In this document: in pieces, positions 22,341 to 24,740 of the stretch | Layout: each line of letters begins with the position of its first letter | Position numbering within the stretch: the stretch's first letter is position 1 | Source: Plasmodiophora brassicae | Taxonomy: Eukaryota | Direction: 5' to 3' | Length of the DNA: 64,000 bases | Assembly (NCBI GenBank): GCA_036867785.1 | Contig: CP145412.1 | Coordinates: 1,488,001-1,552,000 of the forward strand | The notes under the pieces: generated by a model | Databases searched by the model: none | Seen by the model: the letters and a program-made list of their open reading frames with translations, nothing else | What the model was told of the DNA's origin: nothing | Position numbers and translations under genes: made by a program

Positions 22341-24740
22341 TCACGGAACCGACAGCAACGGGCCGCTAAGCACTGCAAGGACGTGGTCGGTCAGATAGAT
22401 TCGGATGATCTCGACGATAAGGACGCCGGCGAACGCGAACGGCAGCGGTTTCAGGTCCCGCTGGAACAGGGGCGCGATCAGGACGCAGGCACAGAACGCG
22501 CCGATGATTGAGCCCAGGCCAAGCGCCAGCGCGCTGACCGTGGACTCCGGGATCGACTGCAGCAGGGCGTACCAGATGAAATCGAAGAGCCGCATCTGGA
22601 CATCGCCGACCTGGTACGTCAGCTTGGGGATCCAGTCGGTCGGCGCGGACAACACTGGACGCGTATGCACCGGGTCGACATGCTCGTCATCGTCTTCGTC
22701 CCGGAAATGCATGGCTGGGTTGTGGAGCTCCATATCCGGGCCGTCGGGATGGTCGTCGGATCGCAGCAGGGTGTACAGCGGCAGGGCAACGTGTCTGCGA
22801 GGCACCACCTGCGCGTACAGGTCGATCCCGACCGGCATCAGCAGCAGGATCAGGATCAGGATCCGGTTCAGTGTCAGCAGCATGATGATGGCCATCAGCA
22901 TGTTCAGGCCCGCCATACTGCATCGCCGGTACCCGGCCGGCACGCCGCGAAAGTAGATGCCGATGATGCCGGCGGCGCCCGCATTGAAGACGAACAGGCA
23001 CAGGGAGATGACGTCGATGGGAACGCCGATGACCTCGGAGACGAGGACGACGGCTAGGCCACCGCCCGTGATGAAGATCATGAAGAAGTCCAGGGCCAGG
23101 ACGCGACGCAGGACACTGATGCACTGGTCACGATACCGACGCAGCAGCAACCCGATGATGGCCACGATAACGACGATGATGATGATGAACACGATGAGCT
23201 GAGTCGGTTGCACCGATTGGTCGCGACTCTGCGACACGGCTGCTGACGCGGATCCCTGCCACACAGACGCGATGTAAGACGTCAAATCGAGTCGCAGCGC
23301 CGAACCGGGCCCCGCACCTGTGCTGTCGTGCCCGCGAGGACGCCGGAGAACCACGACACGACCAGCATACCGAGGAACAGGGGCAGGACAACGCTGTGCG
23401 CCAGCGACCAGACGGCCAGGCACACCTCCACGATCAGCTGGCCGTGTGCGCCTCGCAGAATGTATCCCCGATCGGAGCGCACGACGACGTCCCCGTCGAC
23501 GCGTGTCACGAGCGCCCGGGAATGGCCGCGTTCGCCACGTGCCCGCCTCAGCAGGGCCCGCACGTCGTCCTCGTCGCCGAGCGGAACGCGTCCGACTTCG
23601 CAGAGCGACCTGGGCAGATTGCGCACGTCGCAGAGCGGCGGCACCGTCTCCTGCGAACCCCTGAACTTGTCGATGGCGGCGGCGTCGGCCAGGGCGACCC
23701 AGCACGACGGGTCGCGCAGCACGCGCCGATCGTGGCACGTCCTGCATCGGACGGCGTCGAACATGGACTCGATGTCGAACATGCGCGTGCAATTCATGCA
23801 CTGGCCCAGGCGCCCGTCGATGATGTCCGATTCGAGGTCCGAATGTGCAACGCACGAGTAGACGGCGCGGTCGGGCAGGTTCCCATGGCGGCCGGCAAGG
23901 CCGTTGCCGAAGATCAGCTGGCCGTGCACGGCGCCCCAGCAGGCGCGGCCGTTGAAGTTGGGCCCGCCTGCTGCGACACGGCACTGGAAGGGTTGACCGT
24001 CCAGGTCCCGTCCCGTAATCGCACAGTAATACAGTTGCAGCAGGCCGAACGTCAGCCTGGGGGCGATCTCCCTCAACGACTCGACGATGAACGGGATGGC
24101 CGATGCCGAGCAGCACCCGTACACGTCGAGGACGTCGAGGGACGACACGTCGAACACGAACTGGCGCAGCTGGGCGAACTGGCGCGGGCGCTCGAAATGC
24201 ATCTGCCGGCACCGGATCATGGTCAGGGCGCGCAGCTGACGACACGACCGGGCGATGACGGGCAGGACGCCGGCGTCCACCGCGGCGCAGTCGTCGAGGT
24301 GGATCGATTTCAGGTGGGCGAATCGCGCGTTCGACAGTAACCGGTCGACGAGGAGTGTATGCACTGCAGGCGAGCGCGTGTTAGTGAACGTGTTTGCAGG
24401 CAGACGCGACACGGGTGCGCCCACCGTTGAATCTGAACGGGTACAGGTCGACGACGTCCCACAGGTAGGGCGAGTAGACCGTGTTCTGCCATGCCGAGCA
24501 GACGCGCGCGAGGCGTACGAGATCGGATATGGTGAGGAACGAGAACACATGCCAGAAGACGTCCTCGGGGTAGGCGGTCCCGAACCCGAAGCGGATAACG
24601 GGCGCGGCGGCGGCGTCGACGACGACGGCGACGGGCCCGGTCTCGACGGCGGTGTCGCGCGGGTCCGGCATCAGCAGGCGCTGCTTCTCGTCCGCGTTGA
24701 CGACCGTCGCGCCGGCGCGCTTCGATGCGTGTGATCCCAT
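22341..24740 (-). CDS. F-box/LRR-presenilin-like fusion protein, 758 aa, 3 exons (24740-24425, 24363-23318, 23255-22341)
   Basis: F-box YPEDVFWHVFSFLTISDLVRLARVCSAW, then LRR-like LKSIHLDDC..LRALTMIRC, then a presenilin-like TM series (HSVVLPLFLGMLVV; PIDVISLCLFVFNAGAAGIIGIYF; VGIDLYAQ; QMRLFDFIWY; KPLPF). The 61-nt and 62-nt GT-AG introns keep the frame. Confidence 0.85.

Follow-up and report, generated by a model that had tools for sequence, protein, structure and literature searches.

We analysed a 64,000-nucleotide (nt) window of the Plasmodiophora brassicae genome (GenBank assembly GCA_036867785.1, contig CP145412.1, positions 1,488,001 to 1,552,000 of the forward strand) and focused on a minus-strand gene at 24740..22341, with all coordinates counted from the first letter of this window. 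To judge from its sequence and those of its relatives, this gene encodes an F-box and a presenilin-fold membrane domain in one chain, is not a merge of two genes, and represents a fusion that is conserved across Rhizaria. The conserved architecture, the signature of the presenilin-fold subfamily and a middle domain without a match are new, and the kinds of components are known. The presenilin-fold domain has an altered active site, and capture of substrates is probably better supported than cleavage by the residues found there. On the basis of sequences and structural models, we tentatively read the protein as a membrane-embedded substrate receptor of the Skp1-Cul1-F-box (SCF) type, in which a presenilin-derived pseudoprotease or near-pseudoprotease domain would capture rather than cleave, and we give this reading a little less than an even chance.

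The gene starts with an ATG at 24740, and the spliced coding sequence of 2277 nt is translated into 758 amino acids (aa) with one stop codon, at the end. Exon 1 (24425..24740, on the minus strand like all parts of the gene) encodes residues 1 to 105 and the first base of codon 106. Intron 1 (24364..24424) is 61 nt long with GT..AG boundaries in phase 1 and contains a ctaac branch-like site. Exon 2 (23318..24363, residues 106 to 454) carries the leucine-rich repeats (LRRs), a Cys/His-rich domain, an alpha/beta linker and the first transmembrane helix (TM1) of the presenilin-fold domain without interruption. Intron 2 (23256..23317; 62 nt, GT..AG, phase 0) lies between TM1 and the TM1-TM2 loop, and exon 3 (22341..23255, residues 455 to 758) encodes TM2 to TM9 and terminates with a TGA stop at 22343..22341. 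A first-pass annotation of the window had described two short introns and one 758-aa frame here, and its coordinates hold.

The spliced product is identical over 758/758 residues to the deposited protein P0060 (NCBI XXQ32794.1, 'F-box domain-containing protein', Plasmodiophora brassicae). Another record, P0004 (CEP00969.1 / SPQ95319.1 / UniRef A0A0G4J0T0, 'hypothetical protein PBRA_008281'), differs by two residues, and the same length of 758 aa is found in three deposited annotations. In prokaryote-style gene calls on P. brassicae-like contigs of the Logan collection (P0061 to P0063), the locus is split into open reading frames (ORFs) of 119, 360 and 298 aa. P0062 corresponds to exon 1 read into intron 1 up to a stop, and P0061 to exon 2 read into intron 2 up to a stop. 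The three ORFs are thus the three exons extended into the introns until a stop is reached, which agrees with the exon boundaries given above. The splitting also illustrates how eukaryotic fusions become hidden in metagenome-style protein collections.

The whole protein was modelled with AlphaFold2 from a 39-sequence alignment, with a mean predicted local distance difference test score (pLDDT) of 81.5 and a predicted template modelling score (pTM) of 0.74; only residues 1 to 55, 620 to 660 and 755 to 758 were of low confidence. The F-box at residues 58 to 95 (24456..24569) was recognised by the Pfam families PF12937 (F-box-like; E value of 3.1e-11, 43.3 bits against a cutoff of 24.3) and PF00646 (F-box; E value of 4.5e-08, 33.1 bits against a cutoff of 20.5). 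A short FBXL-type LRR region extends over residues about 106 to 225 (24005..24363), with the repeats starting near residue 89 in exon 1. The sequence signal of the repeats was weak (Pfam LRR_At5g56370 with an E value of 0.16, and FBXL17 by phmmer with an E value of 0.007), whereas their structural match was clear. VIA aligned residues 89 to 231 of the model with FBXL17 (Z of 13.4, root mean square deviation (RMSD) of 3.0, 123 aligned residues) and residues 52 to 273 with FBXL2 from its SKP1 complex (Z of 12.2, 168 aligned residues). A Foldseek search of the model against the Protein Data Bank (PDB) returned the FBXL2-SKP1 chain 6o60_C (E value of 3.4e-05) and SKP2 (E value of 4e-04), and FBXL17 was also matched. 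In the ESM Atlas, the whole protein matched only F-box clusters with scores below 0.8, and the Atlas's own model of it was poor (pTM of 0.37).

The nine-helix presenilin-fold domain occupies residues 417 to 757 (22347..23431, a span that includes intron 2) and was recognised by PF01080, Foldseek and VIA. PF01080 (Presenilin) scored 40.3 to 40.5 bits, above its cutoff of 34.3. In a comparison with the full-length protein, residues 429 to 601 were matched to positions 9 to 187 of the 408 in the profile, so that the match starts in exon 2 with TM1 and spans the junction between exons 2 and 3. A phmmer search against the PDB sequences found human PSEN1 (E value of 9e-07) in two stretches, the C-terminal one of which was weak. 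These stretches pair PIDVISLCLFVFNAGAAGII with TM4 of PSEN1 and DFIWY with DFIFY, and in the alignment D599, D679 and R676 fall on D257, D385 and G382 of PSEN1, respectively. Two of the three string comparisons with PSEN1 made in the first-pass annotation were reproduced in this way, but that of TM1 was not reproduced residue by residue; TM1 nevertheless lies within the Pfam and structural ranges.

Structural comparisons with the model placed PSEN1 chains at the top of the Foldseek ranking (6iyc_B, E value of 2.6e-08), ahead of FBXL2, SKP2 and FBXL17. By VIA, residues 417 to 757 could be superimposed on residues 73 to 467 of PSEN1, from TM1 to TM9, with a Z of 20.6, an RMSD of 4.5 to 4.8 and 264 to 275 aligned residues. 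The loops assigned by homology to the cytosolic side contain 17 Lys and Arg residues, as opposed to 2 on the luminal side, and this bias fits the presenilin topology with a cytosolic N-terminal half. The F-box and the complete TM1-TM9 presenilin fold proposed from the letters were thus recovered by the Pfam searches and the superposition of an AlphaFold model on PSEN1 that had been suggested as checks, with the F-box families and PF01080 above their cutoffs; the LRR-like repeats were recovered by structure, with a weak signal by sequence.

Relatives were gathered by an exhaustive HMMER search with exon 3, which returned 51 proteins at an E value of 0.001 or below. Sixteen of them were 716 to 974 aa long: one from the protein's own cluster, P0053 and 14 others. 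P0053 (847 aa, matched in 12 short stretches, E value of 5.8e-04) was left out as repetitive and probably spurious. Twelve of the 14 contain both F-box-like and Presenilin at an E value of 0.01 or below, with Presenilin reaching the Pfam cutoff in 9 of the 12. The exceptions are P0029, which has a divergent N-terminus without a detectable F-box and of which the LRR and Cys-rich parts still align, and P0045 from Rhodelphis, a canonical presenilin that has a long loop. Both domains were also found in all four further cluster mates (P0055, P0057, P0060 and P0073). Fifteen full-length sequences could be aligned end to end, from the F-box to the last helix (alignment A1). Word-indexed protein searches for longer proteins, with region 420 to 758 and with the A1 profile matched only the protein's own cluster.

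The members with a species name come from P. brassicae, Paulinella chromatophora (a transcript ORF marked as complete), Bigelowiella natans and Nonionella stella, and one further member comes from an MMETSP transcript. All four species are Rhizaria and represent Endomyxa, two classes of Cercozoa, and Foraminifera, which amounts to three phyla. The search for the architecture in other protists that the first-pass annotation had called for therefore yielded the same fusion in Paulinella, Bigelowiella and Nonionella. Some ORFs nearly fill their contigs (820 aa in 2543 bp, 756 aa in 2499 bp and 735 aa in 2411 bp), and these lengths suggest that there is no space for a second gene. The shorter HMMER matches were mostly fragments on contigs of 1.2 to 1.8 kb, one of which has an 840-aa cluster mate, and no stand-alone form of the family's membrane domain was seen among the HMMER matches. 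Searches of metagenome contigs by tblastn with P0043 and P0018 matched nothing.

A tree was built from 28 family and 9 canonical presenilin domains over 306 columns, after rows with less than 75% coverage and three near-duplicates had been dropped. The family was separated from the canonical presenilins with 100/100 support. The closest relative, P0005 (UniParc, 802 aa), is 48% identical over exon 3 and sister to the P. brassicae protein with 100/100 support; it also carries the acidic insertion between TM6 and TM7, RLFD and KPLP. Its amino-acid composition is much less like that of a guanine-cytosine-rich genome (G+A+R+P of 22.0% versus 29.9%), and its sequence probably comes from another phytomyxid rather than being a P. 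brassicae paralogue.

The stretch that joins the F-box part to TM1 is encoded within exon 2 and not interrupted by an intron, and the first Met in the translation of exon 3 is at residue 59, inside TM3. The first-pass annotation had judged a merge of two genes unlikely, and this position of the junction, together with the presence of both domains in 12 of the 14 long relatives and 4/4 cluster mates, bears the judgement out.

Between the LRRs and the membrane domain lies a family-specific middle domain (residues 226 to 406, 23462..24004), which consists of a Cys/His module followed by a beta-alpha-beta-beta unit. The residues C233, C247, W248, C276, H279, C294, C297, C312, C315 and D317 are invariant in A1; in the first-pass annotation this part had appeared as a Cys-rich linker. 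The eight Cys/His ligands would be enough for two zinc ions, and we infer a putative zinc-binding module. Modelled alone with AlphaFold2, the domain gave a pLDDT of 89.2 and a pTM of 0.81. It matched no PDB structure by Foldseek (best E value of 0.81), none of 48161 representative chains by VIA (best Z of 3.9) and no Pfam family at an E value of 0.01 or below, and there was no usable match in the ESM Atlas. Because the model is confident and no structural match was found, we regard the domain as a candidate new zinc-binding fold, with the caveat that missing matches are no proof of novelty.

The active-site residues were compared in a 53-row alignment of 44 family rows (fragments and near-duplicates included) and 9 canonical rows, in which the counts refer to rows with a residue at the column concerned. 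The TM6 aspartate D599 (22821..22823), aligned to D257 of PSEN1, is Asp in 39/41 family rows and 9/9 canonical rows. The residue before it is Tyr in 1/41 family rows as opposed to 9/9 canonical ones and is Ile in P. brassicae (GIDLYA), so that the YD motif is missing. The place of GLGD is taken by R676-L-F-D679 (22581..22592, in RLFDFIWY), in which D679 corresponds to D385 and R676 to G382 of PSEN1. The first Gly of GxGD is replaced by Arg in 39/39 family rows, compared to Gly in 9/9 canonical rows, and the Gly beside the TM7 Asp is kept in 2/39 family rows compared to 9/9 canonical rows. Phe occupies the latter position in P. brassicae, which consequently lacks GxGD, and GxGD is absent from every family row of the alignment. 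At the PALP position, the family has R in 32/38, P in 36/38, L in 27/39 and P in 34/39 rows, as opposed to P-A-L-P in 9/9 canonical rows; P. brassicae has K723-P-L-P726 (22440..22451) and thus lacks the PAL motif.

The TM7 aspartate is present in 33/39 family rows (N in three, E in two and C in one of the others) and in 9/9 canonical rows. P. brassicae retains an Asp in both TM6 and TM7 (D599 and D679), the diaspartyl pair. The rows with an Asp-to-Asn change in TM7 include a supported clade (100/99) with the B. natans cluster, and Paulinella has Cys there. In P0031, P0040/P0073 (Bigelowiella natans) and P0049 (MMETSP transcript), TM7 reads RF[AG]NLF, and the Arg three residues upstream and the remaining protein are retained. 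In the accessible part of one study, the YD and GxGD motifs of presenilins and signal peptide peptidases are described as absolutely conserved (PMC2947513). The invariant Arg, the bulky residue beside the Asp and the non-acidic TM7 replacement in two lineages speak against proteolysis as the function that has been conserved. The designation 'protease domain' in the first-pass annotation is supported by the fold and both aspartates but weakened by the changes of YD to ID, GLGD to RLFD and PAL to KPL, and by the loss of the TM7 Asp in 6/39 rows.

The most conserved parts of the membrane domain are the surroundings of both aspartates and a short hairpin before TM7. TM4 contains an Asn that is invariant across the family in a W-N-F-like context, at a site which we take to be the PEN-2 binding place in PSEN1. 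N545 and Y555 are invariant in the family alignment, where the hairpin before TM7 is conserved as well. The acidic loop between TM6 and TM7 described in the first-pass annotation is present as an insertion at residues about 620 to 660 (22638..22760, pLDDT below 50), but within the 15-sequence alignment it is common only to the P. brassicae protein and P0005, the other members having mostly a short hairpin.

The covalent fusion, conserved across three rhizarian phyla, suggests a selected functional coupling between the presenilin-fold domain and SCF ubiquitination. As a membrane-embedded receptor, the protein would have its N-terminal half in the cytosol, like the N-terminus of presenilin, and Skp1-Cul1-Rbx1 would be brought to the membrane by the F-box. 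The main task of the presenilin-fold domain would be to dock transmembrane clients within the membrane, and the cytosolic parts of docked clients would be ubiquitinated. This domain would have little or no proteolytic activity, or none that the protein needs, and a retained role in docking or gating would then account for the conservation that is still strong around the former active site. Given such a role and a cytosolic F-box, LRR and zinc module, we see this receptor as the most economical mechanism. A bolder version would see a Rhizaria-wide SCF receptor in which a presenilin-derived domain with an invariant Arg reads transmembrane helices within the bilayer and is coupled to the F-box by a new zinc-binding domain, all in a single chain. 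It would be the first presenilin-fold pseudoprotease and would let cullin-RING ligases pick out integral membrane proteins from inside the membrane; we hold this version to be possible but less likely than not.

Several points weigh against a capturing receptor. That the F-box recruits Skp1 is an assumption based on its profile and its fold, and the F-box-like profile stays under its cutoff in P0018 (19.8 bits). Presenilin likewise stays under its cutoff in P0005 (28.0 bits), P0017 (31.6 bits) and P0043 (33.8 bits). Both aspartates are kept in P. brassicae and in most of its relatives, and catalysis may still take place, since buried acidic residues are costly unless used. The change in PAL alone is not disqualifying, given that an active archaeal enzyme has PPL. 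In addition, it could really be the LRR and Cys-rich domains that bind substrates, with the membrane domain as a mere anchor.

Of the alternatives, the one that survives best is an active protease with an R-x-x-D site, which would cut transmembrane substrates and leave either the cytosolic fragment so released or the stub to be ubiquitinated by the attached SCF; we consider it unlikely. It would account for a complete TM1-TM9 fold in which D599 and D679 align with D257 and D385 of PSEN1 (39/41 and 33/39 rows with Asp), and in which the surroundings of these residues are the most conserved of the domain. An archaeal homologue with PPL instead of PAL is active, as stated in the accessible text of the same study (PMC2947513). 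However, GxGD is found in no row, the first Gly being Arg in 39/39 and the Gly before the Asp being left in 2/39 rows, with Phe in P. brassicae. The TM7 Asp is lost in 6/39 rows, including the clade with the B. natans cluster. Furthermore, a change from Gly to Ala beside the Asp already slows proteolysis in the three enzymes tested, namely presenilin, SPPL2b and the archaeal homologue (PMC2947513, in the part available).

A second alternative is that the nine helices only tether an ordinary FBXL-type receptor, whose LRR and Cys/His-rich domains bind soluble or peripheral substrates, which we think quite unlikely. The LRR is the substrate-binding part in known FBXL proteins, and together with the likeness of the model to FBXL17, FBXL2 and SKP2 this counts for a plain anchor. 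The Cys/His-rich domain, in which 9 Cys/His/Trp positions are invariant among 15 sequences, also equals the membrane domain in its degree of conservation. However, an anchor has no need of nine helices with an invariant Arg, a near-invariant buried Asp, N545, Y555 and the hairpin before TM7, all maintained across three phyla.

There is also a slim chance that the presenilin-like domain is the functional unit, for example in a gamma-secretase-like complex or in a non-proteolytic role, and that the F-box controls the turnover of the protein in cis or binds Skp1 without a cullin. The invariant TM4 Asn in its W-N-F-like context, presumably the PEN-2 site of PSEN1, would suit such a function. In animals, SEL-10 binds PS1 in trans and promotes its ubiquitination (PMC12130275, in the portion consulted, citing Li et al. 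2002), and non-proteolytic functions of presenilin have been reported in Dictyostelium (PMC6613883, accessible part). However, a role as a degron would leave the conserved LRR and Cys/His-rich domains unexplained. An annotation artefact, in which adjacent F-box and presenilin-like genes are wrongly joined by predicted introns, would fit the three ORFs called on other assemblies (P0061 to P0063) but is nearly excluded, because these ORFs are exons read into introns, the junction lies in exon 2, the translation of exon 3 offers no earlier Met than residue 59, and the same fusion occurs in 12/14 long relatives and 4/4 cluster mates, including transcript-derived ORFs.

Our searches of openly accessible papers found neither an F-box-presenilin fusion nor this gene described. 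Nothing was found in the searchable literature for presenilin with Plasmodiophora, or for F-box and presenilin with Rhizaria, and no mention of the protein's accessions and locus tag was found there. The accessible portion of a bioRxiv preprint on presenilin evolution (10.1101/394270) does not mention F-box, fusion or Rhizaria. Listed papers that combine F-box with presenilin were irrelevant to judge by their titles or abstracts, and presenilin came up in none of the listed papers on rhizarian genera. The first-pass annotation had named the system its best candidate for an undescribed one, and 'undescribed' holds for searchable papers. However, NCBI and UniRef already contain the protein, one of the collections searched lists precomputed Pfam matches to F-box and Presenilin for it, and the architecture is not unique to this genome. 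To our knowledge, a link between presenilin and an F-box protein is known only in trans, from SEL-10/FBXW7 acting on PS1.

These observations suggest that membrane proteins may be tagged for degradation in a way that has not been described before. If the docking proposed for the capturing receptor is true, the protein would show how a cullin-RING ligase reads transmembrane segments within the membrane. It would also be a natural presenilin fold without canonical catalysis and would bear on the debated non-proteolytic roles of presenilin. If the domain is active instead, the intramembrane aspartyl proteases would gain a new active-site variant, R-x-x-D. The host is the clubroot pathogen, in which membrane protein turnover is uncharacterised, and nothing in our results ties the gene to virulence.

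The gene is flanked on its downstream side by a minus-strand kinase gene (21071..22009; Pkinase, E value of 4.2e-43), which starts about 330 nt past the F-box-presenilin stop codon. A hydrophobic stretch beginning MDLGRRVLLLSSAALCSLLWL before the kinase domain resembles a signal peptide. A 776-aa open frame on the plus strand (16931..19258) contains a putative glucoamylase domain (PF10091, E value of 2.3e-61) and a weak ricin-B lectin-like signal that is under the cutoff (E value of 0.0016). Upstream of the F-box-presenilin gene, a 216-aa open frame on the minus strand (25172..25819) matched no Pfam family at an E value of 0.01 or below.

Compared with known systems, the membrane domain shares with presenilin-1/2 (PF01080, the catalytic subunit of gamma-secretase) the nine-helix fold, the TM6 and TM7 aspartates, the conserved TM4 Asn and an R/K-rich TM2-TM3 turn. 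It differs from them in RLFD for GLGD, ID for YD and KPLP for PALP, and the family forms a separate clade (100/100). Furthermore, it has an N-terminal extension of about 410 aa with the F-box, LRR and Cys-rich parts, and most members have only a short hairpin in place of the long cytosolic loop. The fold is also that of the archaeal presenilin homologue PSH/MCMJR1 and of SPP/SPPL (by VIA, Z of 12.7 for PSH 4y6k_B and 15.4 for SPPL2a 9k92). As in these proteins, most family members have a short connection between TM6 and TM7, and a PAL variant (PPL) is tolerated in active PSH, as given in the accessible part of PMC2947513. However, PSH and SPP/SPPL keep YD and GxGD (same part of PMC2947513), and a fused ubiquitin-ligase adaptor is found in none of them.

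The F-box profile above the cutoff and the F-box and LRR fold are shared with FBXL-type SCF receptors such as SKP2, FBXL2 and FBXL17. However, the LRR stretch is short here and is followed by the Cys/His-rich domain, for which no match was found, and by a polytopic membrane domain. FBXL2 reaches membranes via a lipid anchor and not via a transmembrane domain. As in the SEL-10/FBXW7-presenilin pair, an F-box protein and presenilin are tied to ubiquitination (PMC12130275, citing Li et al. 2002, in the portion consulted). There, however, presenilin is the substrate of a separate F-box protein with WD40 repeats, whereas here both are in one chain and the repeats are LRRs. A parallel may also be drawn with the rhomboid pseudoproteases. 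The Derlins and iRhoms have an intramembrane-protease fold without the canonical catalytic features and pass membrane clients to ubiquitin ligases. The analogy is one of working principle only, as the fold and the type of ligase are unrelated, and the link to the ligase would here be covalent, via the F-box.

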